Shown one piece after another: positions 1 through 13,972 of a stretch of DNA of 64,000 nt; the first letter of the stretch is position 1; each line of letters starts with the position of its first letter. Below the pieces are notes generated by a model, which saw only the letters and a program-made list of their open reading frames with translations, did not search any database and was not told the origin of the DNA. A program made the translations under genes and the position numbers. The DNA is from a virus. The DNA lies in IMG/VR virus record IMGVR_UViG_3300047650_000023. The stretch is one strand, 5' to 3'.

Positions 1-31
1 TTTATCTATTCCAGAAAATTTTACTGTAGAA

Positions 32-601
32 ATGTCAAGTGAATTTCCTGTAAATTTTGAAGGTGAAATTATTGATTTAACAAATACAGTATCTAATACT
101 TTATATAGAGTTTATTATGCAATTGATAGAATAACTTTAATAAATTCAACAAATTCATTTACTATAGGAACTAATAATGAATATATATATCCTTTGAATT
201 TTGAAGATGTATCTAATATACAATTAGCTTTTAATGGTTTATCTAATGGTAATATCATTAATCCACAATTTGTTTGTACTGATGGAACTAGGACAAGTTT
301 ATTAACTATATTAGGTACAATAGGTCAAAATGATAGATTTGTATGGGATGGTAGTATTGGATATATAAATAATATACCTGTTTCCACAACTGGAAATTTA
401 CAAGCATATAAGAATGGAATTTTTACTATTCAAAATACTAAGATTATTCCGAATTTAGAATTAACTTATCAAATGAGTTCAGGTCACATGTTTTATGTTA
501 TTGATAATAATACATATAATATACCTTTTGCTTTACAAGCAAATATTTCATATAAATTTGGATTATTGCCTACCAATTTGTACATAAAGGAGTTGAGTTA
601 A
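32..601 (+). CDS. Phage tail-module protein, 3' part (frame open to the left window edge)
   Basis: No stop between base 2 and the ORF-track ATG; N/T/S/G-rich beta-type composition; co-directional with tail genes. Confidence 0.55.
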   Translation: MSSEFPVNFEGEIIDLTNTVSNTLYRVYYAIDRITLINSTNSFTIGTNNEYIYPLNFEDVSNIQLAFNGLSNGNIINPQFVCTDGTRTSLLTILGTIGQNDRFVWDGSIGYINNIPVSTTGNLQAYKNGIFTIQNTKIIPNLELTYQMSSGHMFYVIDNNTYNIPFALQANISYKFGLLPTNLYIKELS

Positions 602-1549
602 TTGTATTTATCAGGAATTATTTTAGGTAGTTCTAATTTTAATGGATATCCTCCATCAATTACAATTATTCCTTCTTATAATAAAATAACTGTATTTGGT
701 CAACAAACTATTAATTATATAAAAGTTTATAATCGAGTTTTACAAATAAATGAATTGGATAGTGTTACATTAAGTACAATTCCAGAATGGGATATAAACA
801 CGGTTGCTTTAGCAACATTTAATAATAGTATTGATGCTGGAACTATTAGTAATTTATCAGATCCTATTACACAAGTTAATATACAAAGACTTGATTCTAA
901 TGAAAGTGTAGCTACAAATTTGGGAACCGTACCAGTAAATTCATCAACTTTTTATAATAATCTCATTCCATATTTTGAAGATTTAACTGTTGCAACAAAT
1001 AGAAATTATATATATTATGTCACACCTATGACAGCTACTACAAGTGGTAGTATTTTGACTAGTGATCCTATTGATGTAGATTTTTATAATTGGAGTTTAA
1101 CGGATAGTGTAACTGGTGATGTTTTTATATTTGATTTAGATATTAAAAGTGGCGAATTAGACCAACAAACAGATCATACTGAGTACCCCACTTTTAATTC
1201 ATATAATAAAATGCAATTTGGAGAGAGATCATTCATAAAAGGAAGTTTAACTTGTACAGCAGGAAGTATAACTGATTTAGGTGGGTATACTTGCACAGCA
1301 GATTTTATAGATAATCTTAAAAGTGTAATTTCAAATTCAAATTTAAAGTATATCAAATCTCGAAAAGGCGATTTTTGGGTATGTGTAAGTTATGATTTTA
1401 AATGTCAATATACTGATGAGTCTTCATTACAACCAGCCCAAATAACGTTCTCTTTTCAAGAAGTGGAAAATATAAATCAACCGATATTACAAACTTCTAA
1501 TAATGTAAGTATAACAGTAAGTGGAAACAGTCAGTGGGGATATTTTTAA
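602..1549 (+). CDS. Phage tail protein (distal-tail/Dit-like C-terminal region)
   Basis: TTG start abutting upstream stop; C-terminal 'KGSLTCTAGSI...LKYIKSRKGDFW...QITFSFQEV' resembles large-siphophage tail components; family recalled, not searched. Confidence 0.55.
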   Translation: MYLSGIILGSSNFNGYPPSITIIPSYNKITVFGQQTINYIKVYNRVLQINELDSVTLSTIPEWDINTVALATFNNSIDAGTISNLSDPITQVNIQRLDSNESVATNLGTVPVNSSTFYNNLIPYFEDLTVATNRNYIYYVTPMTATTSGSILTSDPIDVDFYNWSLTDSVTGDVFIFDLDIKSGELDQQTDHTEYPTFNSYNKMQFGERSFIKGSLTCTAGSITDLGGYTCTADFIDNLKSVISNSNLKYIKSRKGDFWVCVSYDFKCQYTDESSLQPAQITFSFQEVENINQPILQTSNNVSITVSGNSQWGYF

Positions 1550-1598
1550 ATAATAATTTAATGAATATAGAATAATTACAAGGAGGTGATAATCTCTA

Positions 1599-3122
1599 TT
1601 GGCAACATATTTTAATAAAATAACAACTGATTATTTAAATGCAATAGAAAGTCCTATTGTTCAAGGAATTTTTCGTGTTGATCTCCTAAATTCATCAGAC
1701 GAGTCATTTTATAAAACAATTACAAATAGTGCTGTAAATAACAATGGAACTTTAACTACAAACTGGAATAATGGTTTACGAAGGACATTCACTTTAGACC
1801 TCGTAAATGAGGATAATTCATATCTTTTTAATCCAAATAGTAACACTGGATTATGGTTAGATTCAAAAATGAAGGTCTATAATGGCATACAAGTTAATGA
1901 TGATCAATATTATTTTTCTCAAGGAGTTTTTCTCTTAAATGCACCAGCAGTAATATCACAGTTTAGTGACAGACGTATTACAATAAATGGAAGTGACAAG
2001 TACTGTTTACTGGATGGTTCTAATGGTGCAGGATATTTATCACAAGACACGGAGATACCGTTAGGTACTATTTTTTATGAAGCGATCAAATTAATCTTAC
2101 AATTATCAAACGATCCTATTTCTCCAGTAATTTCAGAAACATATTTTAATCAAGTTATTCCTTGCAATATAATTGTCAACGCAGGAGGGAAAATTTCTGA
2201 TCTACTTGACCAAGTGTGTCAGTGTTTTTCTTGTAATTATGGATACTCAACGGACGGAATACTGACGATCAGCGATGGGAGTCAGGATTTAGACGATTCA
2301 CTCAAACCATCTGAATTTGACTTTTCAACGATCAGTAATGTATATGGTGGTACAAATAGTTCTGGAAATGTATTTAACACAAGTCAAATTTATAATATTG
2401 TGAGTGTCATTGGAAACAATGTAAATGGGCAGACCACATCTACGGCAATAGTGGCTTCACATATAATTACATATAACCTTTCAAATATTGTGGGATATTT
2501 TGATCCAACAAATGGAGAATTAATTTCAAATTTTATTTTAGGCGGTACAAACGTATCTGACTTAGGTCATATTACAAGTATTGCGTTATTAAATTCTAAT
2601 TCAACGGCACAAATCACAATCAGTGGAACAATTGGTGCAATAACACAAAACTATACTATCGCACCATTACAGGCTGCTTTAGGAACAGGATATACAGCAC
2701 CCACAGCGATACAAATTAATGTGTTTGAAAATCCCGAAGATGCTACAACGATAACAACAAATGGTATTACTGCTTCAGCTATTGCAACAAATGATGATCT
2801 TACCAGTCCATTATGTGTACAACGAATTGGAGAGAGAGTAGCTCCATTAGTACAAGACCAAAACATATCCACAAATGCTTTAGCACAGCAACGTGCGGCA
2901 TATGAGTTGAAAAAGTATACTATAGCACAGACTACCTTTAACTTCACATCAAGTTTTGTACCACACTTACAAGAAAATCAGGTCGTGACGATTTCTGATC
3001 CTTTTTTAGATTATAGTCAGCAAAGAGTCTTACTTACACAGATACAATTCGACCTTAACACTGCAGGAAATGTTACATATCAAGGAAGTAATACTAACGA
3101 ATTAGATTTTTCAATAACGTAA
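1599..3122 (+). CDS. Phage tail/baseplate hub-like protein
   Basis: RBS AGGAGGTG; 'GLRRTFTLDL...YFSQGVF...ITINGSDKYCLLDG' and C-terminal 'AQQRAAYELKK...VPHLQENQVVTI' typical of tail hub proteins. Confidence 0.6.
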   Translation: MATYFNKITTDYLNAIESPIVQGIFRVDLLNSSDESFYKTITNSAVNNNGTLTTNWNNGLRRTFTLDLVNEDNSYLFNPNSNTGLWLDSKMKVYNGIQVNDDQYYFSQGVFLLNAPAVISQFSDRRITINGSDKYCLLDGSNGAGYLSQDTEIPLGTIFYEAIKLILQLSNDPISPVISETYFNQVIPCNIIVNAGGKISDLLDQVCQCFSCNYGYSTDGILTISDGSQDLDDSLKPSEFDFSTISNVYGGTNSSGNVFNTSQIYNIVSVIGNNVNGQTTSTAIVASHIITYNLSNIVGYFDPTNGELISNFILGGTNVSDLGHITSIALLNSNSTAQITISGTIGAITQNYTIAPLQAALGTGYTAPTAIQINVFENPEDATTITTNGITASAIATNDDLTSPLCVQRIGERVAPLVQDQNISTNALAQQRAAYELKKYTIAQTTFNFTSSFVPHLQENQVVTISDPFLDYSQQRVLLTQIQFDLNTAGNVTYQGSNTNELDFSIT

Positions 3123-3178
3123 GTTAGATAAATAAATTAAATTATTATTAACGAGCAAATAATATTAAAGGAATTGAA

Positions 3179-3526
3179 GTGATACATAAAAATATGGATT
3201 TAACTAAATTAAATCAGCTTGATGAGTCAATGAGTTTAGCAGATCAAAAAACGCTTTTATTAACTATTCAGAAGATAGTCCGAGAAGAAATAAACAATGC
3301 TCCTAACATATTGCGAGGATATCCTGCAATTGTAGTGGCTGTTAATAACAATGGATTGAGTATAGATGTTCAACGAGTTGGTAGCACAGTAACACTTCAT
3401 GGGTTTAAAAATCCATATAAGTTTACATTAATTGTTGGTCAATTGGTTTATTTGTGTGCGTTGAATTGTAGTTCAAACAATAATAGTGGAAATCTAACAA
3501 ATGCTTTTATACTTGTAAAACCATAA
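3179..3526 (+). CDS. Small tail-module protein (possible spike/OB-fold-like)
   Basis: Position after hub gene; 'PAIVVAVNNNGLSIDVQ...LIVGQLVYL' pattern. Confidence 0.4.
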   Translation: MIHKNMDLTKLNQLDESMSLADQKTLLLTIQKIVREEINNAPNILRGYPAIVVAVNNNGLSIDVQRVGSTVTLHGFKNPYKFTLIVGQLVYLCALNCSSNNNSGNLTNAFILVKP

Positions 3527-3589
3527 ATATAAAAATAAAACAATCAAAAGATACAGCAAAAATTAAATATAGAAAGGAAAGGTGATTTA

Positions 3590-4660
3590 ATGTCAGAAAC
3601 AAAATATGATTTAATAACTACATACAGTGCTGATTATACTGAATATCAAACATTATTCAATTTATATTTAGCAGGTACAATATCAACTACTGGTGTATTA
3701 AGTTGGACATCTACATCAAGTGGAAATGTTTATTCGACTACTACTGGTGGACAAACAGCGGTAATGCAACAAATTAAATCAACAATTCATAACTATTTAT
3801 GGACTGCAAGCGATGCTAATTCGATTGCTTCATCTACGCAACTTGGTAATATTATGATCGGTAGTGGATTATCCATTGATAGTTATGGACATTTAAGTAC
3901 CAGTAATACGACTAATCCTAATTATGGAGTTGACACAGGAACAGTAAATACATATGTTATAACGTTTAATCCTGTACCTACATCTTATGTAGATGGTATG
4001 TTAGTTGCAATAAAAATATCACATACGAGTACAGGAGCATCAACATTAAATGTTAATGGACTTGGTGCTAAAACAATATCAGATAGTTATGGTAATGTAA
4101 TTGTTTCAGGGGAATTAATAGCAGGAATAATATATTCAATGCGCTATAACGCTACCACAGGGGATTTTATATTACAAAGTGGAGGAAGTAGTAATTCTGT
4201 ATTAAATCCAGTTTGGGATGCTATTAATTTAACTGTAGGTTCAGGGACACTTACAACAGACAGCCTTTGTTGGTTGGGTAGTAATATTCAATATACACAA
4301 CCCGCATCTAGTATGGCATTAGTTACAGTAGCAAGTGTTTCCTATAATTTACTTCGTTATGGTCAATATTCTGTTGGATTTAGACTTAAAAGCAGTAATA
4401 TAACATCTGCTACTGCTGTAACTACATTAAAAGTATTAAATAGTAGTGGAAATGTTGTAAATAGTGTTGGGATTTTAGGAACGAACTTTGCTATTGTGGG
4501 TGCAAATGTTTATAATACATTTTATTTACCGTTTAATAATTCAGGTCAATCTACTGGAAATGTATTTACATTTGAATTCACATCGGAGGCTGTTGCAAGT
4601 ACATTAATTGCAATAGATTCTATTATAGTTGCTCCTATGCAATTAGCACAATATGGATAA
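3590..4660 (+). CDS. Tail fibre / receptor-binding protein
   Basis: 'ASSTQLGNIMIGSGLSIDSYGHLS' fibre repeat and 'DTGTVNTYVIT...GASTLNVNGLGAKTI' fibre domain; C-terminal beta-sandwich-like region. Confidence 0.7.
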   Translation: MSETKYDLITTYSADYTEYQTLFNLYLAGTISTTGVLSWTSTSSGNVYSTTTGGQTAVMQQIKSTIHNYLWTASDANSIASSTQLGNIMIGSGLSIDSYGHLSTSNTTNPNYGVDTGTVNTYVITFNPVPTSYVDGMLVAIKISHTSTGASTLNVNGLGAKTISDSYGNVIVSGELIAGIIYSMRYNATTGDFILQSGGSSNSVLNPVWDAINLTVGSGTLTTDSLCWLGSNIQYTQPASSMALVTVASVSYNLLRYGQYSVGFRLKSSNITSATAVTTLKVLNSSGNVVNSVGILGTNFAIVGANVYNTFYLPFNNSGQSTGNVFTFEFTSEAVASTLIAIDSIIVAPMQLAQYG

Positions 4661-4692
4661 TATTTAAATAAACTTAGATAGGAGAAAATATA

Positions 4693-6000
4693 TTGATACC
4701 TAAAAATGGATTATATTTATCATCTGCCGATTATGAATCGTGGCAAGATTATTTTAGTGGAATAGCAGATAAAGATTACATAAAACCAAGTTGTAATGGA
4801 TGCTGTTCTGACCCTGATTTGAAAGTCAAAAATATAACTTTTGTTGTTACTGAGAGGTGTAACCTTTGTTGCACCTACTGTTACGAGGTTCATAAATCTG
4901 GTGCGGTAATGAGTAAACAGGTTGCTAAAGATGCTGTTGATTTTCTTTTTAATAAAGAAAAAGTTAATGGTTATTATAGTGATGAAATTTCACCTGCTGT
5001 AATATTAGAGTTTATTGGTGGAGAACCATTACTTGAAATTGATTTGATTAATTATATAGTAGAATATTTTAAGTTTAAATCTTTTGAAGCAGGAAGTGCG
5101 TGGGCAACAAATTATGTAATTAGTATTACAACAAATGGTATTTTATACAAAAGAAAAAATGTTCAAGATTTTTTAAAACGTAATAAAGGACATATAAGTA
5201 TAGGTTTAACTATAGATGGGAATAAAGAGTTACATGATTCATGTCGAATTTTTCCTGATGGTAGTGGAAGTTATGATATAGTTGAATCAGCCGCAAAAGA
5301 GTGGATAAAATTTAATAATCATCCACAAACAAAAATAACTTTATCTCCGTATAATATTTCTTATGTTAATGATGCTTTAAAAAACGTATGGAATATCGGA
5401 ATAACAGGAGCATTTACTAATTGTGTTTATGAAGAAGGTTGGACAATAGAACATGCTAAAATATTTTATTCAGAATTAATTAAATTAGCAGATTATCTTT
5501 TAGAGAACGAAAATTATTCTAAATATTACACTTCTTTATTTGATGAATCTATAGGAAAACCACTTACAGAAGATAGAAACTGGTGTGGCGGCAATGGCAA
5601 AATGTTAGCTATAGGTACAGATGGTAGATGCTTTCCATGTATTAGATTTATGAAATATTCATTAAATACACCTAATCGTAAAGAAAAGTGTATAGGAAAT
5701 ATTTATAATGGTCTTGAAAGTAAAACTAAAAATGTATGGTTATGTGAGTTAAAAAAAGTAACAATGTCAAGTCAGTCAAATGATAAATGTAATAATTGTC
5801 AAATAGCTTCTGGATGTTCTTTATGTACTGGTTATAATTATGATAAATTTGGTACTCCGAATAAAAGAGCAACATTTATTTGTGATATGCATGTTGCCAG
5901 AGTAAAAGCTAATGTTTATTATTGGAATAGATTATATAAATTATTAGATATCAATAAAGTTTTTATAGATAATATTCCCATGAATTGTGAGGTGATATAA
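4693..6000 (+). CDS. Radical SAM/SPASM peptide maturase, CXXX-repeat target type (TIGR04115-like)
   Basis: CxxxCxxC motif 'CNLCCTYC', 'EFIGGEPLL', SPASM cysteines 'WCGG...CFPC...CNNC...GCSLC...IC'; directly followed by Cys-repeat ORF. Confidence 0.9.
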   Translation: MIPKNGLYLSSADYESWQDYFSGIADKDYIKPSCNGCCSDPDLKVKNITFVVTERCNLCCTYCYEVHKSGAVMSKQVAKDAVDFLFNKEKVNGYYSDEISPAVILEFIGGEPLLEIDLINYIVEYFKFKSFEAGSAWATNYVISITTNGILYKRKNVQDFLKRNKGHISIGLTIDGNKELHDSCRIFPDGSGSYDIVESAAKEWIKFNNHPQTKITLSPYNISYVNDALKNVWNIGITGAFTNCVYEEGWTIEHAKIFYSELIKLADYLLENENYSKYYTSLFDESIGKPLTEDRNWCGGNGKMLAIGTDGRCFPCIRFMKYSLNTPNRKEKCIGNIYNGLESKTKNVWLCELKKVTMSSQSNDKCNNCQIASGCSLCTGYNYDKFGTPNKRATFICDMHVARVKANVYYWNRLYKLLDINKVFIDNIPMNCEVI

Positions 6001-6001
6001 T

Positions 6002-6586
6002 ATGGCATGCACAAGTTGTGATGGTGTTTGTACTGGATGTACTGCTGGTTGTCAAGGAAGTTGTGAAAAAACTTGTAATGGTTGTAGCGGAGGTTGTACT
6101 GGATGTTATGGTTCTTGTACTGGTTCTTGTACTAATGGTTGTAATACTAGTTGTACTGGTAGTTGTAAAGGAAGTTGCAACAATGCTTGCACTGGTTCTT
6201 GTGGTAGTTGTACTGGTACTTGTACTGGATATTGCGACAATGCTTGTACATCAGTTAATTCAGCGCAAACTATAGCTAATTTAGGATTAAATATTTTACA
6301 AAAAGGTATTGTTACAAATAATGATTTTCTAGATTTAAAAACTGTATTACGTAATGAATTTAGTAGACGTAGTATGACATTGCCTATTAATGATACATAT
6401 TCAGTAACTCCGGCTAATGGTGTAACAATTTATAAAGAAGAAGCTACAAAAATATTTGGTGATATTAATCAGATGAATAGTGCATTAAATTATTCTATAA
6501 ATGCATCGAATGTTATTTTAACTAGTGACATGAATGCAACTATTGCATATATTCAAACATTAATGAGTCAAAGCATAAGATCATAA
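6002..6586 (+). CDS. Cys-rich CxxC/CxxxC repeat protein, predicted radical SAM substrate, with Cys-free C-terminal domain
   Basis: 22 Cys in residues 3-82 (counted), Gly/Ser/Thr-rich spacers; ATG 1 nt after maturase stop. Confidence 0.85.
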   Translation: MACTSCDGVCTGCTAGCQGSCEKTCNGCSGGCTGCYGSCTGSCTNGCNTSCTGSCKGSCNNACTGSCGSCTGTCTGYCDNACTSVNSAQTIANLGLNILQKGIVTNNDFLDLKTVLRNEFSRRSMTLPINDTYSVTPANGVTIYKEEATKIFGDINQMNSALNYSINASNVILTSDMNATIAYIQTLMSQSIRS

Positions 6587-6622
6587 TAAAGGTATAAATA
6601 AAAAAAATAAAGGAGTGTTTTT

Positions 6623-7075
6623 ATGGATACAAATCAAACTGCAATATTAGCGGCATTATTAGCATTAAGCAACGAGGTAATAGTTAACAATATAAGCGAT
6701 CCTGAAATTCAAACAAATATTACAAGTATAAATAGTATTACTGCAACAGATAGTTCTTTTGTGCAACTAATTATTGATAACATTCGTAATATGATTGATA
6801 TTTCAACAGCAAGTAATCAGCCTATTTTAACAACAATCATTAATGGTTTAACTTCTATTACTATAAATGCACCAGCATTATTAGGTGTTTTAACTATGCG
6901 TAATCTTAATAATCCTCAAAGTATTGCTAATTACATAGATTCTGAAATTATAAGTAATATTAATGATTTTAATTATTATAGTGCTTTATCAAGATTAGCA
7001 ATATCGTTAGGAGATTCTAAAAGAATATCAGCAGTTTTGACAAAAATACAATCATTAACGACATCAGGTAGTTAA
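6623..7075 (+). CDS. Hypothetical helical protein in the radical SAM cassette
   Basis: RBS AAGGAG; 150 codons; coupled to next ORF. Confidence 0.6.
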   Translation: MDTNQTAILAALLALSNEVIVNNISDPEIQTNITSINSITATDSSFVQLIIDNIRNMIDISTASNQPILTTIINGLTSITINAPALLGVLTMRNLNNPQSIANYIDSEIISNINDFNYYSALSRLAISLGDSKRISAVLTKIQSLTTSGS

Positions 7076-7076
7076 T

Positions 7077-7475
7077 ATGGAGAAAATAGAATCAGAAAAG
7101 TTATTACAAGTGATAACAGAATTAATTGAAGATCAAAGAATTTTCATTGATTTTCCAATAGAAATATCTAATAAATTAGAATTATTGCAACTAAAAATTA
7201 ACTCATCTGAGTTGTTATTTACTGCTTACATTAATAATACTTCAGAATTAGCAAATGAATTTAATCTTGAAAAGTTTTTAACTTTTTATGCTAATTTAAC
7301 TAATGAAAAAGATTTTTTATTTAAAGATACTGCATTATCTATTATAGGAACAGAAATTTATAATTATTGTTTAGAGCAATCTAACAGAATTATATTTTTC
7401 TTAGATAATGATCTTAAAAAATTAATATTTAGGAAATTACCAAAGATAAATGAAGTATCTAATATATCTATATAA
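7077..7475 (+). CDS. Hypothetical protein, possible CXXX-system accessory protein
   Basis: ATG 1 nt after upstream stop; size and position fit accessory proteins of CXXX systems (inference). Confidence 0.55.
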   Translation: MEKIESEKLLQVITELIEDQRIFIDFPIEISNKLELLQLKINSSELLFTAYINNTSELANEFNLEKFLTFYANLTNEKDFLFKDTALSIIGTEIYNYCLEQSNRIIFFLDNDLKKLIFRKLPKINEVSNISI

Positions 7476-7499
7476 TATCTATATAAAACATAATGGGAA

Positions 7500-7940
7500 G
7501 TGATGAAATTTATGAAAAGAATTTTAAAACATATTAGTCATTCGATAATATTGTTCACAGTTTTGGGACTAATTTACTATTTTTTAGAAGTCATATACAG
7601 GGGACATTCTCATTGGGAAATGCTTATAATTGGCGGTTTATGTGGGCTTAGTCTTTCATACCTAAATTCCTTTCTGTCGTGGAAAATGCCATTAGTAATT
7701 CAAGCTGTCCTTGGCATGTTAATTTGTTTGATTATAGAATTTACGAGTGGCTGTATTTGTAACCTCGCATTAAATTTAAATTTATGGAACTACAATGGCT
7801 TACCTTTTAACTTACTTGGACAGATACAATTATACTATGCTGGGATGTGGTATGTGCTTTCTATCGTAGGCATTATTTTGGATGATCATTTAAGACATTG
7901 GTTATTTGGTGAACCTATGGGAAAGTACATAATATTCTAA
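7500..7940 (+). CDS. Multi-pass membrane protein, putative ABC-transporter-permease-like (PF06541-like)
   Basis: 'LEVIYRGHSHWEMLIIGGLC...IIEFTSGCI...LWNYNGLPFNLLGQI' pattern; four hydrophobic stretches. Confidence 0.75.
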   Translation: MMKFMKRILKHISHSIILFTVLGLIYYFLEVIYRGHSHWEMLIIGGLCGLSLSYLNSFLSWKMPLVIQAVLGMLICLIIEFTSGCICNLALNLNLWNYNGLPFNLLGQIQLYYAGMWYVLSIVGIILDDHLRHWLFGEPMGKYIIF

Positions 7941-8089
7941 AATATAATAGAATGATGGTTTGATGGGGACTATTGGAGATTATATCTCTTGTTTTCTCTA
8001 TAATGCTTTAGTATGCTCTGTTTTAAATGTGAACAAAATATGAATAAAATTAGGAAATCAGAAACAAATTAAATATTTTAATGTAATTG

Positions 8090-8118
8090 AGAGAATCTAT
8101 TAATTTAGGTTCTCTTTT
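8090..8118 (+). terminator. Intrinsic terminator after tail/radical SAM operon
   Basis: agagaatct / aggttctct stem (one G-U) followed by tttt. Confidence 0.55.
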
Positions 8119-8234
8119 ATTATATGTAAGGAACGTCTTGTATGTAGACAAGCTACATACGCTTTTGCTTATGCCTGAAGGCAACGCAACACTATAAATA
8201 TGAAATAAATAAGAATGTATACGAAGGTGAATAA

Positions 8235-8426
8235 ATGTCAGAAGATGTTTTTGTATGTAAGAGTAGTATTCTTACAGCGTTTTTAATTCGTAATAAATGT
8301 AATTGTTTTAAAGTAGACCTAGATAATAAAAATTCAGATTATTTAATCCATTTGTTTGATAGAGATGAAAATTTAAAATCAGCTATGGATAAATGGCAAA
8401 CTAGATTCTTTAGAACAATTCAATAG
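8235..8426 (+). CDS. Small phage protein (DUF5659-like)
   Basis: RBS GAAGGTG; 63 aa; similar pattern to 10897-11088. Confidence 0.55.
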   Translation: MSEDVFVCKSSILTAFLIRNKCNCFKVDLDNKNSDYLIHLFDRDENLKSAMDKWQTRFFRTIQ

Positions 8427-8450
8427 AGAAAGGTTGTAGGTGATTTTATA

Positions 8451-8983
8451 ATGTCAAAAGAAATAGAAACTGTAAAAATAGAAAATGGAGATTATCTAGT
8501 TATTGATAAAGAAACTGGAAGTGTAATAAATACTATCAACAAAGGAGATAGAGTTATTCATAAAGAACAGATTGAATATTGCAAAGAGTATGATAATAAT
8601 TTTGGGAAAGGTAGAAATTTTGTGAAACTATTTGATGATTTAGAAGATATGCTTACAAATAAACTAACTAATGCTGAAATTGTTTTTATACTTAAAATTC
8701 GTAAATTTGTTTCTTATAATGATGCTATTCTTCGTGATGATTTTGGTAAAGGTGAAGTTCTTACATATGACACAATTGCTGGAAAAACAAAAATGTCTTA
8801 TTCTGGTGCTAGAAAAATAATTGAATCATTAATGAAAAAGGTGTACTAGCAATAAGCAAAACTGGAACAAGAGACAATGGCAATCTACTTACAAAGACGA
8901 TTCATGCAAATCCTAATATCTTTATTAGAGGAAATAAAATGGCAAGGTCTACTTCTGATTTATTTAGAAATAGTGGTTGGTAA
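8451..8983 (+). pseudogene. RepL-like wHTH protein with a -1 frameshift at 8835-8840
   Basis: Frame 0 stops at 8849 (MKKVY*); the -1 frame from 8840 gives 'GVLAISKTG...HANPNIFIRGNK...DLFRNSGW*', a RepL-like C-terminus. Confidence 0.7.
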
Positions 8984-9053
8984 TATAGTAGTTTAATAAA
9001 GAATAAGAAGATAAATCCGTTAAAAAGTGATTATATACCTATGTTTGTGAGTA

Positions 9054-9109
9054 AAAAAGTGACCCAAATCGGGACACTTTTTCCTATATTAATGACCCAT
9101 TGTAGGTCA
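9054..9109. repeat. Two palindromic sites between the RepL-like genes
   Basis: aaaaagtgaccc-aaatc-gggacacttttt (11/12 symmetric) and tgaccc-attgt-aggtca; related gtccc-attt-gggac at 9870-9883. Confidence 0.7.
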
Positions 9110-9136
9110 CTTTTTTAAAAAATAAAGGAGAATTGT

Positions 9137-9862
9137 ATGAATAAAGAAGTAGAAACTATAATTTTAGATCCGAATAATGTAATTGAGAATTTTAATGAAG
9201 GTGTTCCGTATATAAAATTATATGATAATATAGCTAAAAATCTAAGAAAAATTTTAACACAGACTGAATTTGTAACTGCTTATAGTTTAGTAGATTATAT
9301 AGATGAATTTAATGTAATTAAGTTTGATGAAAAATTTTTATCCATGCAAAATTTATCTGAATATTTAAATGATACATATTCATCTATGAGAAGAATTATT
9401 CCAAGTTTAATAAATAAAAATGTTATTTGTAATTATTACATTGAAATCTATGATAACAAATATACAAAAGCATTTATATTAAATCCTTCTATAGCAACAA
9501 AAGAAAATTATAATTCTAAATATAAAGAGTTATTTGAAAATCCTAAATTAGTTGAAATAAATCATGCTATGTATTCAAATAATTCAGATAGAAGTACACC
9601 AGAATATCGTCAATGGATACAAGACTCATTAGACCGTGATAATTATACTTGTCAATGTTGCTGTTCTACAGAAAATTTAGAAGTACACCACATTTTGAAT
9701 TATGCACAATACAAAGATTTGAGGACTAATTTAGATAATTCAATTACATTATGTCAATGTTGTCATAGTCCTATGATTAAAGGTTCATTTCATAATATAT
9801 ATGGAACTAAAAATAATACAAAAGAGCAGTTGGATGAATACTTAGGACAAGCCAAAAAGTAG
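9137..9862 (+). CDS. RepL-like N-terminal domain fused to an HNH endonuclease
   Basis: N-terminus parallels 8451 ORF (YIKLYD...LT..E...SL..K.V...NPSI); C-terminus 'RDNYTCQCC...LEVHHI...NLDNSITLCQCCH'. Confidence 0.8.
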   Translation: MNKEVETIILDPNNVIENFNEGVPYIKLYDNIAKNLRKILTQTEFVTAYSLVDYIDEFNVIKFDEKFLSMQNLSEYLNDTYSSMRRIIPSLINKNVICNYYIEIYDNKYTKAFILNPSIATKENYNSKYKELFENPKLVEINHAMYSNNSDRSTPEYRQWIQDSLDRDNYTCQCCCSTENLEVHHILNYAQYKDLRTNLDNSITLCQCCHSPMIKGSFHNIYGTKNNTKEQLDEYLGQAKK

Positions 9863-9935
9863 CCATATAGTCCCATTTGGGACAAATACAATAAATTAAA
9901 TAATAAAAATAAACTAAGAAAAGAAAGGGATTTTA

Positions 9936-10871
9936 ATGTTAAATTTAAAAAGTAAATATCGTAAAATAGTTTCTTTGGTGTTAGCAATGGTTTTGGTGGG
10001 GAGTGTATTAATTATACCACAAAGTTTAACTGCTAGTGCAGCAACTAAAAATGGTTTGGACGTTTTTCATGGTACAACTCAATATAACCTAGTGGATTGG
10101 TCGCTGTTAGCTAAACAAGAACAATTTATTTACATAAAAAGTACGGAAGCAACGAATTTTAAAGATCCCACATATGTTTCAAATTACACAAATGCTAAGA
10201 AAGTCGGTTTAAGTTTTGGGGCGTATCATTTTTTAAGATTATATTCTGTTTCAAGTTGTATAGCGCAAGCTGATTTCTTTTGGTCACAAATTAAAGGCAC
10301 AGGTTTCTCGCTAGTTCCAGTTTTGGATTGTGAATCGTACGATTCTCAAACTACATCTGTAGGTGTAAGAGCATGTATAGCTTCATTTTTAAATGAGTTC
10401 TATAAAGATTCTGGTATACATTGTTTAATTTATGCTTGTCCAGATTATATAACAAACAATGACCTAAATTCTTATTTTTATTCGGATATGCTGTGGGAGG
10501 CTCAATACAATATTACACCTGATAAGATAAAAAATTGGAATTGGGTTTTGTGGCAATTTAGTTCTACTAGTCATTTATCATCTATTGGTGATGGTTTAGT
10601 AAATCTTGATTTTGATACAACATCATCTAATAGATTTTATTTAAAATATAATATTTATACTACTACAGTAAAACCTAAAAATAATGCTGTTACAAAATCA
10701 AAAGTACAAGTTTATGATGCAAACGGAAATATAGTAACTGGTTATACAATTCCAGCCAATACTTGGATTTATATTAAACGCTACACTTCAACATTCTGGG
10801 AAGTTATATATCCAAGTGGAACACATTGGACTAATGGATATATTTCAACAGCAACAAATCTCAAGAGATAG
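9936..10871 (+). CDS. GH25 muramidase (endolysin) with Sec-type signal peptide and C-terminal cell-wall-binding-like domain
   Basis: 'NGLDVF', 'FIYIKSTEA', 'GAYHF', 'VLDCE', 'LWEAQY', 'WQFSS' GH25 motifs; basic N-region, hydrophobic core, ASA-A cleavage motif. Confidence 0.88.
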   Translation: MLNLKSKYRKIVSLVLAMVLVGSVLIIPQSLTASAATKNGLDVFHGTTQYNLVDWSLLAKQEQFIYIKSTEATNFKDPTYVSNYTNAKKVGLSFGAYHFLRLYSVSSCIAQADFFWSQIKGTGFSLVPVLDCESYDSQTTSVGVRACIASFLNEFYKDSGIHCLIYACPDYITNNDLNSYFYSDMLWEAQYNITPDKIKNWNWVLWQFSSTSHLSSIGDGLVNLDFDTTSSNRFYLKYNIYTTTVKPKNNAVTKSKVQVYDANGNIVTGYTIPANTWIYIKRYTSTFWEVIYPSGTHWTNGYISTATNLKR

Positions 10872-10896
10872 AGAAATAAATTAAAGGAATGATTAA

Positions 10897-11088
10897 ATGC
10901 AAGAACAGGAAGTAGATTTATTTCCTTGTTATAGTAAACCATTAAAAGATTATTTAAATAAACAAGGTTTTATCTATAAGATTACAGGGTTGTCTATTGA
11001 AACACATAAACAATTTTGGGTATTTATTAGAACAGAACAATTCAATAACGCATTAACAAAATGGGGAGTAACTAATCCGAAAGGTTAG
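10897..11088 (+). CDS. Small phage protein (DUF5659-like)
   Basis: 'FPCYSKPLKDYL...G..Y...G...THKQFWVF.RTE...AL.KW' pattern. Confidence 0.6.
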   Translation: MQEQEVDLFPCYSKPLKDYLNKQGFIYKITGLSIETHKQFWVFIRTEQFNNALTKWGVTNPKG

Positions 11089-11141
11089 TTACTCTTTTAC
11101 TTTGTATTTTAAAATTTTAATTAGAAGGAAGTTGATATATA

Positions 11142-11927
11142 ATGGCAAATAAATGTTTTTATGTCTATAAGTTTTTAGATGATAATAATAATATTATCTA
11201 TATTGGAAAAGCGAAAAATTTAAACCATAGAATAATAAATCATTTTGGAAAGTTTGGGCATTTACCTAAAGAATGTTATAAAAATATTTCTAAAATAGAA
11301 TATTGTATTTTTAATACTAATACTGATATGTCTATATTTGAAATTTATATGATAAATAAATATCGCCCAATTTATAATATACACTCTAAATATAATGAGA
11401 ATATTAATAATTGTATATTTCAATTATAAGAACCTATTTGGAATAAATATATAAAAGAAGATAAAAGAAAAGTTAATAAACATAAAATTATTAATAAACG
11501 AAACATAAAAGTAATTTGTCTTACAACAGGTTTAATCTTTAATTCTTTATCAGATGCTAATAAATATTATAATATAAAAAGTCATAACGCAGTAAATAGT
11601 GTTTGTCAAGGGAATTCTAAGTCTGCTGGTAAAAATCAAATTACAGGTGAAAGATTGTATTGGGCTTATTATAATGATTATTTATCTGGGAATTATAGTA
11701 TATACAATAAATGTTTTAAAATTATATGTTTAAATAATAAAATGATTTTCAATAATTTAGAAGATGCTAAAAATTATTTTAATTTAGATAATGTCACTAG
11801 AATTTCGGAATGTTGTCATAATAAAAGTAGATACGGAGGTAGAGATCCAAAAACAAATGAAAAGTTACAATGGATGTTTTATAATGATTATTTAAAATTA
11901 AACAATCAAAATAATAAAATAGCATGA
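11142..11927 (+). pseudogene. GIY-YIG endonuclease with NUMOD1-like repeats, interrupted by one in-frame TAA (11427-11429)
   Basis: 'YVYKF...IIYIGKA..L..RI..H'; same frame stays open after the TAA to 11927 and encodes two 'ICL...F....A...C....G....L.W..Y.DY' repeats. Confidence 0.8.
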
Positions 11928-11933
11928 GAAAAT

Positions 11934-11979
11934 AAAATAGAAGGACTTTATATTAATTTATAAAGTTCTTCTATTTTTT
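11934..11979. terminator. Intrinsic terminator, probably bidirectional
   Basis: aaaatagaaggactttata / tataaagttcttctatttt, 19-bp stem with one G-U, A- and T-tracts at the ends. Confidence 0.8.
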
Positions 11980-12243
11980 ACGATTTTATTTTCATTTCAA
12001 TATATCTACTAGAGCCATCACAATGCCCTACAATTGTTTAAATATAAATACTAATAACTATAGCAAAAATGTATTTATACTAGCCTAGTCGTAAAATTAA
12101 ACGTATAGGAGTATATTTATATATACAAATCAGTAATTAATATTATTTAAACAAACAATCTTCTATTTTTTATATCTTATATATTCAGTAAAAATTGATA
12201 ATAATATCAACATCAAAATAAAATTTATAAAGAAGGTGATGCC

Positions 12244-12408: not shown

Positions 12409-12456
12409 GGTTACTATAATGTACCTGCCACTGGTGCCATATCGGCTAAAGTAACC
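12409..12456. mobile_element. Predicted attP of the serine integrase
   Basis: 48-bp imperfect inverted repeat (ggttact...agtaacc) centred on TG at 12432-12433, inside acctgccactggtgccat (TCHWCH codons); overlaps integrase stop. Confidence 0.8.
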
Positions 12457-13972
12457 TTTTATAGACAATTTCTAATATGGTTTCGGTTTCGTTACATATC
12501 CAAATAATTTTATTAACTATAGATTTATATAATTGATTCCTTTTTTGGGGTGTATCTGCTAAAGATATATCATTAACAAACTTTTTTAAATTGTTAATAT
12601 CTTCTTCGTAATTATAATTTGACGTAGCTTTTAATTGAATATTTAGATCATTGATTTCTTTCCTAATCAACTTAATTTTTTTGTTCCATTTTTCTTTTCT
12701 TAATCTCCATTCTTCTTTATTATAATCTCCTATTTCATACATTTCATTAACTTTATCAAGAGCTTTTAAATATTTATCGAGTTCATTTGTCTTACTTAAT
12801 ATATTATCTTGAATAATTTTAATATCTTCTGTATTATCAAAATTATTTTGCAAAGAATAAATGCTTAAATATTGTTTAACTTTATTTATCACTAATTCTT
12901 CTAATGTTTTTTCCATAATTCCTTTGTTAATGCACTTATTTCCGTATGGATCTTTAAACCAACATGGTTTCATTAATACATTACCATTTGGTTTAGTAAG
13001 AAAACTATGGGTATGACCACATCTTCCACACTTTATTAAGCCACTAAAAGCAAATACTGATTGTTTTGTTCTTGATGGCATTTTATTATTATCTAATATT
13101 AATTTAAGAATTTTATCATGTTCAGATTGCGTTTTTACTGGATCATGGCAATTTTCAATAATAATCCATTGGTCTTTTGAATTTTTATGAAGTTGTTTAG
13201 CGTTAGGTTTTTTTGTTTTATGACCATCTCCAATAGATTTATTACTTATTATTTTTCCTAAATGAGTTTCGTCTACCAATAATCTGGAAACAGTCAAGTT
13301 ATTCCATTTCATATGTCTTGGAGATAAAATATTTTGATTATTAAGAATGTTAGATATTTGAGTTGTTGAATTTCCAGATATATATAATTCTATGATTTGT
13401 CTATAAACTTTAAGTTTTTCATCATTAATAACAAGTCCTTTTTCATTATATTTATCTTTGTATTTTTCATATTCATATGGATATGGTGGTGTTCCATTAG
13501 TCCAATTACCTCGTCTTGATCCAACCATTTTACCTTGTTTAAATCTTTTAGAAATCATTTTATATTCTTGTCGCGCAAATAACCCCTTAAAATCAGCATA
13601 TGTATCATCTAAATCATTATTTAGATCATATACTTTTTCAGGGGTTATTATTAAAGTATTAGATTTTTGAAATGCTTTTTTAATTCTATCTTGTTCTCCT
13701 AAGTCACCACGTCCCAAACGATCATAATCAACGCTACATACAGCATCATATACCCCTGCTTCAACATCTTTTAATAATTGTGTCATTTTTGGACGCATAT
13801 CAATACTATCTGAAGTTCCCACTTCTGCGTATTCTACATATTTAAAATTATTTTTAGTACATAAATCTGTTAAAATAGTTCTATGTTTCATTAAATCATC
13901 TTCATTATCTGCACGAGATTTTCTAATATATAAAGCTACAAATTTAACGTTATATTCCATATTATTTAACAT
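12446..13972 (-). CDS. Large serine recombinase (phage integrase); real start probably the ATG at 13960
   Basis: 'ALYIRKSR' catalytic motif, 'DYDRLGRG', recombinase domain 'GNWTNGTPPYPY', Zn ribbon 'CGRCG', C-terminal coiled coil. Confidence 0.95.
   Translation of the reverse strand: MLNNMEYNVKFVALYIRKSRADNEDDLMKHRTILTDLCTKNNFKYVEYAEVGTSDSIDMRPKMTQLLKDVEAGVYDAVCSVDYDRLGRGDLGEQDRIKKAFQKSNTLIITPEKVYDLNNDLDDTYADFKGLFARQEYKMISKRFKQGKMVGSRRGNWTNGTPPYPYEYEKYKDKYNEKGLVINDEKLKVYRQIIELYISGNSTTQISNILNNQNILSPRHMKWNNLTVSRLLVDETHLGKIISNKSIGDGHKTKKPNAKQLHKNSKDQWIIIENCHDPVKTQSEHDKILKLILDNNKMPSRTKQSVFAFSGLIKCGRCGHTHSFLTKPNGNVLMKPCWFKDPYGNKCINKGIMEKTLEELVINKVKQYLSIYSLQNNFDNTEDIKIIQDNILSKTNELDKYLKALDKVNEMYEIGDYNKEEWRLRKEKWNKKIKLIRKEINDLNIQLKATSNYNYEEDINNLKKFVNDISLADTPQKRNQLYKSIVNKIIWICNETETILEIVYKRLL

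Follow-up and report, generated by a model that had tools for sequence, protein, structure and literature searches.

The stretch of DNA analysed here, hereafter the window (64,000 nt, IMG/VR virus record IMGVR_UViG_3300047650_000023), belongs to a phage of an anaerobe and carries on its + strand, within the tail module, a conserved kit of three genes, which recurs in hundreds of phages. These encode a radical S-adenosylmethionine (SAM)/SPASM maturase (4693-6000), a two-domain target protein containing a tract of closely and regularly spaced cysteines, or Cys ladder (6002-6586), and a probable helper protein (7077-7475). On the + strand, the window's first 12 kb make up the late region of this phage, which is temperate, with a low GC content (26-33%) and a serine integrase encoded at 12446-13972, on the strand opposite to the late region. 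An earlier sequence-only reading had described 4693-7475 as a cassette resembling those for peptides that are made by ribosomes and modified after translation (RiPPs), in which a maturase was coupled to a 22-Cys repeat protein and two unknown open reading frames (ORFs).

The maturase gene encodes 435 aa and starts with TTG at 4693, with an AGGAG Shine-Dalgarno sequence 8-9 nt upstream. Its product matched TIGR04115, the family of radical SAM/SPASM maturases of CXXX-repeat targets, over model positions 2-359 of 359, with 408.8 bits against a cutoff of 350 (E = 2.4e-122), so the family assignment proposed earlier holds. The CNLCCTYC motif that had drawn attention to the gene comprises C56, C60 and C63 (CX3CX2C), and the SPASM cysteines noted with it make up the full 7-Cys motif (C298-X12-G311-X4-C316; C366-X2-C369-X5-C375-X2-C378; C397); both sets of cysteines were invariant in 26 aligned relatives. 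The next-best families were PapB (NF047865, 179.6 bits), CcpM (108.9), QhpD (105.7) and the SCIFF maturase (103.6), followed by weaker matches to TIGR03942 (anaerobic sulfatase maturase, 58.7 bits) and TIGR04463 (53.8 bits), and the best match to a solved structure was CteB (5WGG, E = 3.4e-21). Pfam and NCBIfam scans detected no RiPP recognition element (RRE) or PqqD domain in the maturase, in which only 45 residues precede the core. A tblastn search of phage records returned TIGR04115-like relatives of more than 30% identity only in uncultured 'Bacteriophage sp.' records, and matched the maturases of SPN3US-like jumbo phages at ~24% identity.

The stop codon of the maturase ends at 6000 and the ATG of the target gene follows at 6002, a gap of 1 nt; the target gene has its own GAGGTG Shine-Dalgarno sequence and is translationally coupled to the maturase, in agreement with the coupling proposed earlier. 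The 194-aa product (cluster 1, present in 65 loci) is a two-domain protein rather than a peptide. All of its 22 Cys lie within residues 3-82 (6008-6247), spaced by 4 (16 times) or 3 residues (five times), and the remainder of this tract is mainly G, T, S, N and A, with no hydrophobic core. The same spacing prevailed in 64 non-redundant relatives (4 residues, 2152 times, 76%; 3 residues, 618 times, 22%); relatives attain lengths of up to 968 aa and Cys counts of up to 126. In the clade closest to the window the ladder varied threefold, from 22 to 63 Cys, and the helical domain that accompanies it was kept. A 57-nt unit is present in 1.9 copies (79% match) in the ladder DNA at 6136-6246, together with several 12-nt periodicities, which are consistent with ladder growth through duplication; two overlapping ORFs, 6018-6275 (+) and 6106-6240 (-), were discarded as by-products of this repeat DNA.

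The second domain of the target is a conserved helical domain of 110 residues that lacks Cys and is C-terminal in the window (residues 85-194, 6254-6583). An alignment of 33 sequences (A1) showed the motif L..LK..V..E..RR ... Y.F...P..G ... EH..K, in which E35, R38 and R39 were invariant, and AlphaFold2 predicted from it four helices with a pLDDT of 82.2 (the predicted score in the local distance difference test) and a predicted template modelling score (pTM) of 0.76. The domain had no match in the PDB at E <= 0.001, and its best match in BFVD was an unnamed phage protein (template modelling score, TM, 0.68). With a limit of E <= 1e-3, a profile search of 1.84 billion representatives recovered no fewer than 614 clusters (50% identity), and with E <= 1e-10 it recovered 347; the domain occupied residues 1-100 in almost all matches. 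Among the best 150 matches, 99 had Cys ladders, and most of the others were short and are probably fragments.

Most of the 68 IMG/VR loci that were retrieved by means of the maturase also encode ladder proteins with the domain, again in N-terminal position. The order of the window, ladder first and domain last, was seen only in its own clade, formed by loci L003-L006 and the Desulfosporosinus prophage L071, whose maturases are 60-81% identical to that of the window, whereas all others are at most 49% identical. A single rearrangement would explain the reversed order. Since the domain precedes the ladder elsewhere and follows it in this clade, the enzyme family serves both arrangements, an argument for docking through the domain rather than for a directional scan from leader to core. 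In protein P0043 the order is domain, ladder and a C-terminal globular part, which corresponds to the anchor-shaft-tip layout of fibres; P0133 contains a weak CBM_4_9 insertion (21 bits, under the cutoff). Two further arrangements of ladder proteins were observed. In L050 (123-4653), four consecutive ladder ORFs (162, 968, 100 and 271 aa; at most 104 Cys), none with the helical domain, precede a 653-aa maturase. In L002 (MT837480.1), the ladder protein encoded at 2222-2746 next to a related maturase (39.6% identity) has a twin-arginine-type N-terminal signal, SRREFFK..., suggesting that a separate, exported class of CXXX targets may exist.

The label RiPP-like does not suit the window. Its substrate, a protein of 194 aa, has a conserved folded domain (pLDDT 82) and neither a signal peptide nor a cleavable leader, and no protease or exporter gene lies nearby: scans with Pfam, NCBIfam and PHROG assigned no ORF of positions 1-12000 to a peptidase or ABC ATPase family. 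A short precursor with a cleavable leader and a leader protease or exporter, by which RiPP clusters are recognised, are thus missing from the locus, and no RRE domain was detected in the maturase.

Both ORFs regarded as unknown in the sequence-only reading are present, and one of them, 7077-7475, is a core component. In 36 viral loci a canonical helper gene, an ORF of 95-147 aa, lies directly upstream of the maturase and usually overlaps its start. The 132-aa product of 7077-7475 (+ strand) aligned with this family (34 sequences) in hhalign with a probability of 89.7% (E = 1.8e-6, 96 colinear columns); unrelated cluster pairs all remained below 3%, and smaller alignments gave a helper probability of 64%. 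The orthologues of 7077-7475 in L005 and L006 are situated directly upstream of the maturase and overlap it. Judged from these comparisons, 7077-7475 probably encodes a homologue of the maturase-adjacent helper. The AlphaFold2 model of this protein (pLDDT 90.2) consists of a strand, a long helical hairpin and two strands, and fold searches with it returned only generic helical-hairpin matches (Z <= 9), with no clear RRE-like match. Predictions of a complex of maturase, helper and helical domain gave 0.00, 0.65 and 0.00 in three runs, which, being without controls, count neither way. In a Mu-like prophage (L107:6001-7005, P0018) a single ORF fuses helical domain, Cys ladder and helper, although it comes from a single contig and could be an assembly artefact.

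The other ORF, 6623-7075 (+ strand, 150 aa), encodes an all-helical, clade-specific protein. Homologues follow the target gene in L003, L004 and L071, and L005 and L006 have a related ORF of 147 aa in this position (hhalign 94.2%, E = 1.1e-7). In the ESM Atlas, 6623-7075 had no matches other than TPR/HEAT-like ones of TM below 0.5, and the helper had none of use. No NCBIfam, Pfam or PHROG family was matched by the 6623-7075 product or by helpers from six loci, and the earlier suggestion that TIGR04116-04119 models be checked led to a negative result for both 7077-7475 and 6623-7075.

The conservation of the kit was surveyed in 70 phage loci (68 from IMG/VR and two GenBank records of uncultured phages) and 36 loci from bacterial genomes. 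A maturase gene and a Cys-ladder gene on the same strand were found together in 65 of the 70 phage loci, indicating that the pairing is not due to chance. The pairing also held in most of the bacterial loci, nearly all of which were from Clostridia (Desulfosporosinus, Eubacterium, Lachnospiraceae, Oscillospiraceae, Blautia and Neglectibacter); they include prophages of the cultured strains Eubacterium pyruvativorans i6 (L072) and Neglectibacter timonensis SN17 (L084, L090). Throughout the 68 viral and 36 bacterial-genome loci the cassette followed tail-fibre or baseplate genes and usually preceded an endolysin gene. In myovirus-type modules it came after Baseplate_J, Mu Gp48, tail-collar and tail-fibre genes, and in a siphovirus-type module after Dit/Tal. 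Named PHROG matches of the upstream neighbours (29 non-redundant) were nearly all tail fibre, tail collar or tail proteins (examples with E values from 1e-49 to 1e-116), and those of the downstream neighbours (n = 43) were mostly endolysins or amidases; one upstream fibre matched phrog_1806, 'collagen like minor tail'. The kit is followed in about 24 loci, those of the L014 group, by more large ORFs, which match tail fibres weakly; in L107, nothing but the ladder protein and an ORF of 216 aa separates Mu Gp48 from the maturase and endolysin. A C-terminal motif of about 40 residues (..AP.nt..LWIDT....LKYYNGsaW..VPV) was common to long fibres and to ORFs of 75-156 aa located just 5' of the ladder gene (for example L008:2524-3978, L031:3346-3675 and L058:5301-5585), and was absent from the fibre of the window.

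In the window, positions 2-4660 are taken up by tail proteins, as judged from PHROG tail matches. The ORF at 3590-4660 (+ strand) encodes a tail-fibre-like protein of 356 aa (phrog_28171, E = 1.2e-24; phrog_4900 'tail protein', E = 9.8e-13) and is context, lying outside the kit; in L003 and two Desulfosporosinus loci, L071 and L106, homologues likewise lie upstream of the maturase. The 32 nt given earlier for the distance from its stop codon to the TTG at 4693 were confirmed, and after the target gene the intergenic gaps are 36 nt (before 6623-7075), 1 nt (before 7077-7475) and 24 nt (before 7500-7940). This last ORF (+ strand, 146 aa) encodes a small multi-pass membrane protein (PF06541, 34.1 bits with a cutoff of 25.9; phrog_20274, E = 3.4e-30), which has no ATPase partner and is the final gene ahead of a terminator-like site; it may be a holin or may be tied to the kit. 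A homologue was observed at L050:8079-8522, two genes 3' of the maturase in an unrelated locus.

No terminator-like hairpin was found on the + strand from 3000 to 8089, as had been noticed for the stretch up to about 8090, and within 3000-9000 only two were detected: one at 8089-8116 (+), the first past the tail operon, with an 11-pair stem followed by a T-run, and one from the hairpin scan at 8139-8161 (+). The tight packing of the genes and the lack of a terminator-like site before 8089 support the view that the cassette is part of the late tail operon. Promoter-like sites were not enriched (76 versus 65.6 +/- 9.3 in shuffled sequences) and are uninformative in DNA of 27-29% GC. Past the two hairpins lie small ORFs, a GH25 endolysin gene (9936-10871), a GIY-YIG ORF and the serine integrase gene; two homing-endonuclease-like ORFs flank the endolysin, one a weak HNH match (9137-9862, 19.2 bits, under the cutoff) and the other a clear GIY-YIG match (11142-11429, 41.8 bits). 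The same phage sequence was recovered in several metagenome assemblies, in contigs of up to 117-188 kb, and a megablast of positions 1-12000 against 50,697 phage records gave no match.

The enzyme and repeat families are already catalogued, as TIGR04115 and TIGR04114, and the kit is therefore not a new kind of system. With the TIGR04115/TIGR04114/TIGR04117 CXXX-repeat system, which has been defined by comparative genomics only, the window shares a maturase above the TIGR04115 cutoff and a target with Cys at every fourth residue, but it differs in its 194-aa two-domain target, its placement in a tail operon, a ladder N-terminal of the domain and a helper that matches no NCBIfam model. We found nothing in the literature on the chemistry of the TIGR04115 family or on its phage setting, nor any experimental work on the family, in line with the earlier description of both its chemistry and its role as uncharacterised. 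The setting in a phage tail module, the protein-sized two-domain targets, the helper family, and the reversed domain order of the window with the helper moved downstream were likewise not found described.

Among characterised enzymes, CrpC, a TIGR04463 SPASM enzyme of Methanococcus voltae, installs ranthionine on CrpA, a 28.8-kDa Cys-repeat protein whose N-terminal domain aids engagement, and a small co-encoded protein, CrpB, raises the yield (Dieter et al. 2026, PMC13692751). The two systems are alike in having a SPASM radical SAM enzyme with three [4Fe-4S] clusters next to the gene of a protein-sized Cys-repeat substrate, a folded domain outside the repeats, which in CrpA aids engagement, and a small co-encoded protein. 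They differ in that CrpC has its own RRE domain, whereas the window enzyme has 45 residues before its core and scores just 53.8 bits with TIGR04463; in that CrpA carries a C-X-X-Q/D motif in 17-residue repeats instead of CxxxC; and in that the archaeal locus is chromosomal, with no phage context. The families of known chemistry that scored best with the window maturase were PapB/freyrasin, CteB/SCIFF and QhpD (of quinohemoprotein amine dehydrogenase), at values far under the respective cutoffs (340-453). All of them form thioethers from a Cys sulfur to a side-chain carbon, PapB doing so at repeated C-X3-D motifs. Unlike the window target, what they modify is a short leader-core peptide or a small subunit of an enzyme, and their acceptor positions must differ from those of the window ladder, which has a Cys at i+4. 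Collagen-like (Gly-X-Y) tracts of phage tail fibres, which are of low complexity and variable length, lie between an anchoring and an optional distal domain and trimerise without enzymes, offer an analogy only, as the ladder has a dedicated radical enzyme and a helper.

Taking these data together, we consider it likely that the ladder undergoes covalent modification that depends on the maturase. The thioether, the bond type put forward in the sequence-only reading, is still the best guess from homology, PapB, QhpD and SCIFF/CteB being the nearest families, and is favoured here with somewhat less assurance. In the mechanism that we propose, the TIGR04115 enzyme would abstract hydrogen atoms within the ladder tract, and thioethers (ranthionine or sactionine) would form between Cys sulfurs and carbons of residues nearby; as position i+4 is another Cys, the acceptors would have to be T, S, N, D or G residues in between. 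Many such short-range links would staple the ladder, converting the tract into a covalently held rod or knot that needs no disulfides. The helper (7077-7475) would probably assist the maturase, and the helical domain, by analogy with CrpC and CrpA, may dock the target to the maturase or to the helper. Remaining on the product, this domain would provide a handle by which the enzyme or helper, the tail, or both could dock, and the product would then be mounted on or beside the tail fibre. Non-reducible links in a tract without a core would suit a particle that is made in, and released into, reducing habitats.

That the product ends up in association with the tail has, in our estimation, an even chance of being correct, and the proposal as a whole, in which the kit performs thioether stapling of a tail-associated fibre part, is put forward on sequence grounds with the odds about level. 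The sequence-only reading had left the choice between a virion component and a bioactive peptide; the gene context favours a component of the virion or tail, and the absence of a signal peptide, protease or transporter in the operon argues against an exported peptide, while the proteome of a distant cultured relative, the Salmonella phage SPN3US, points the other way.

SPN3US (JN641803.1) has a maturase 24% identical to that of the window and a target with a different N-terminus, and the product of its upstream gene, gp168, is a tail protein (PMC5105663). The 86-protein virion proteome of SPN3US lists gp167-170 but not gp161-166 (PMC5694885, supplement), and among the proteins not listed are gp163/164, which are radical SAM enzymes, and gp166, the annotated Cys-repeat protein. 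This absence is weak evidence against a virion location, because the study demanded at least three peptides per protein (PMC5694885), the SPN3US ladders offer hardly any sites for trypsin and one further ladder ORF lacks an annotation. The latter, of 130 aa with 21 Cys, lies between gp167 and gp166 (L113:1567-1959); for gp166, the longest same-frame start, which gives a ladder ORF of 134 aa, appears to lie 24 codons upstream of the annotated one.

Besides the SPN3US proteome, several observations weigh against a stapled tail part. The target of the window scored 19.1 bits with TIGR04114, just below the cutoff of 20, although the relative L014:4784-5581 reached 32.4 bits. Ladder proteins that lack the helical domain, such as this same relative, adjoin one that has it in L007, the L014 group and L070, which means that the domain is not the sole recognition element or that the chains assemble together. 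Non-structural cargo genes, too, are commonly placed between tail fibre and lysis genes. Finally, the data show the gene identities and the family of the enzyme, the two-domain build of the target, the conservation of the kit and its place in tail modules, whereas the action of the enzyme on the target, the thioether bonds, the helper role and the presence of the product in the virion are steps that we infer.

The alternative that fares best accepts the cross-linking of the ladder and places the product outside the virion, as a soluble factor released at lysis or made in lysogens, which could be a bacteriocin-like or other anti-competitor protein, an anti-defence or superinfection-exclusion factor, or an environmental binder. 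The location at the tail-fibre/lysis junction, a common cargo slot whose named downstream neighbours are mostly endolysins, would agree with it, as would the gap at gp161-166 in the SPN3US virion, the secreted RiPPs made by most relatives of the maturase, and the temperate nature of a phage with an integrase at 12446-13972. We nevertheless regard it as rather unlikely, since the kit is tightly packed with the tail genes and no promoter/terminator frame of its own stands out, no signal peptide, leader protease or exporter accompanies it, a tail fibre gene lies upstream across unrelated tail types, some members possess an additional tip-like domain, and products reach 968 aa.

Less probable still is that the ladder chiefly binds metal or iron-sulfur clusters in the manner of a metallothionein, with the enzyme making few or no thioethers or catalysing another Cys/Ser reaction, such as a formylglycine-type oxidation. 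Metallothioneins typically show CxC, CxxC or CC patterns, unlike the spacings of 4 (76%) and 3 (22%) found here, although the very dense free thiols and the lack of a hydrophobic core would favour binding. A metal-loaded product was left open in the sequence-only reading, and metal binding is suspected by the authors of the CrpA study for their cross-linked protein (PMC13692751). The anaerobic sulfatase maturase family TIGR03942 is a relative of the enzyme, but a weaker one (58.7 bits), and the best-scoring relatives of known chemistry are thioether synthases; the strict pairing of the ladder with a dedicated SPASM maturase and a helper likewise argues for covalent maturation.

A role of the ladder protein and the helper as chaperone or scaffold in tail-fibre assembly, discarded before the virion is complete, is very improbable: the kit always adjoins fibre genes, the position where tail-fibre chaperone genes are typically found, and the Cys-repeat protein is missing from the SPN3US virion list, but no fibre chaperone is known that resembles a low-complexity Cys tract of variable length dependent on a three-cluster enzyme, and the tip-like domains (P0043; weakly, the CBM_4_9 insertion of P0133) fit a displayed part better.

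Returning to a stapled tail part, we tentatively propose, as a generalization that is somewhat less likely true than false, that phages of anaerobes harden a host-recognition appendage with thioether staples installed by a radical SAM enzyme, as a redox-proof substitute for disulfides, which are unreliable in reducing habitats, and that a helper and a portable docking domain, able to work on either side of the ladder, direct the enzyme to its protein-sized target. If true, this would be, as far as we could find, the first case of a virion structural protein modified by a radical SAM enzyme. It would represent a new virion maturation chemistry and would help to explain the stability of extracellular fibres in phages of strict anaerobes, and it would provide protein engineers with genetically encoded, non-reducible cross-linked rods. 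Given the abundance of the module, with at least 614 domain clusters, many of them from gut metagenomes, the finding would bear on host recognition by gut phages.

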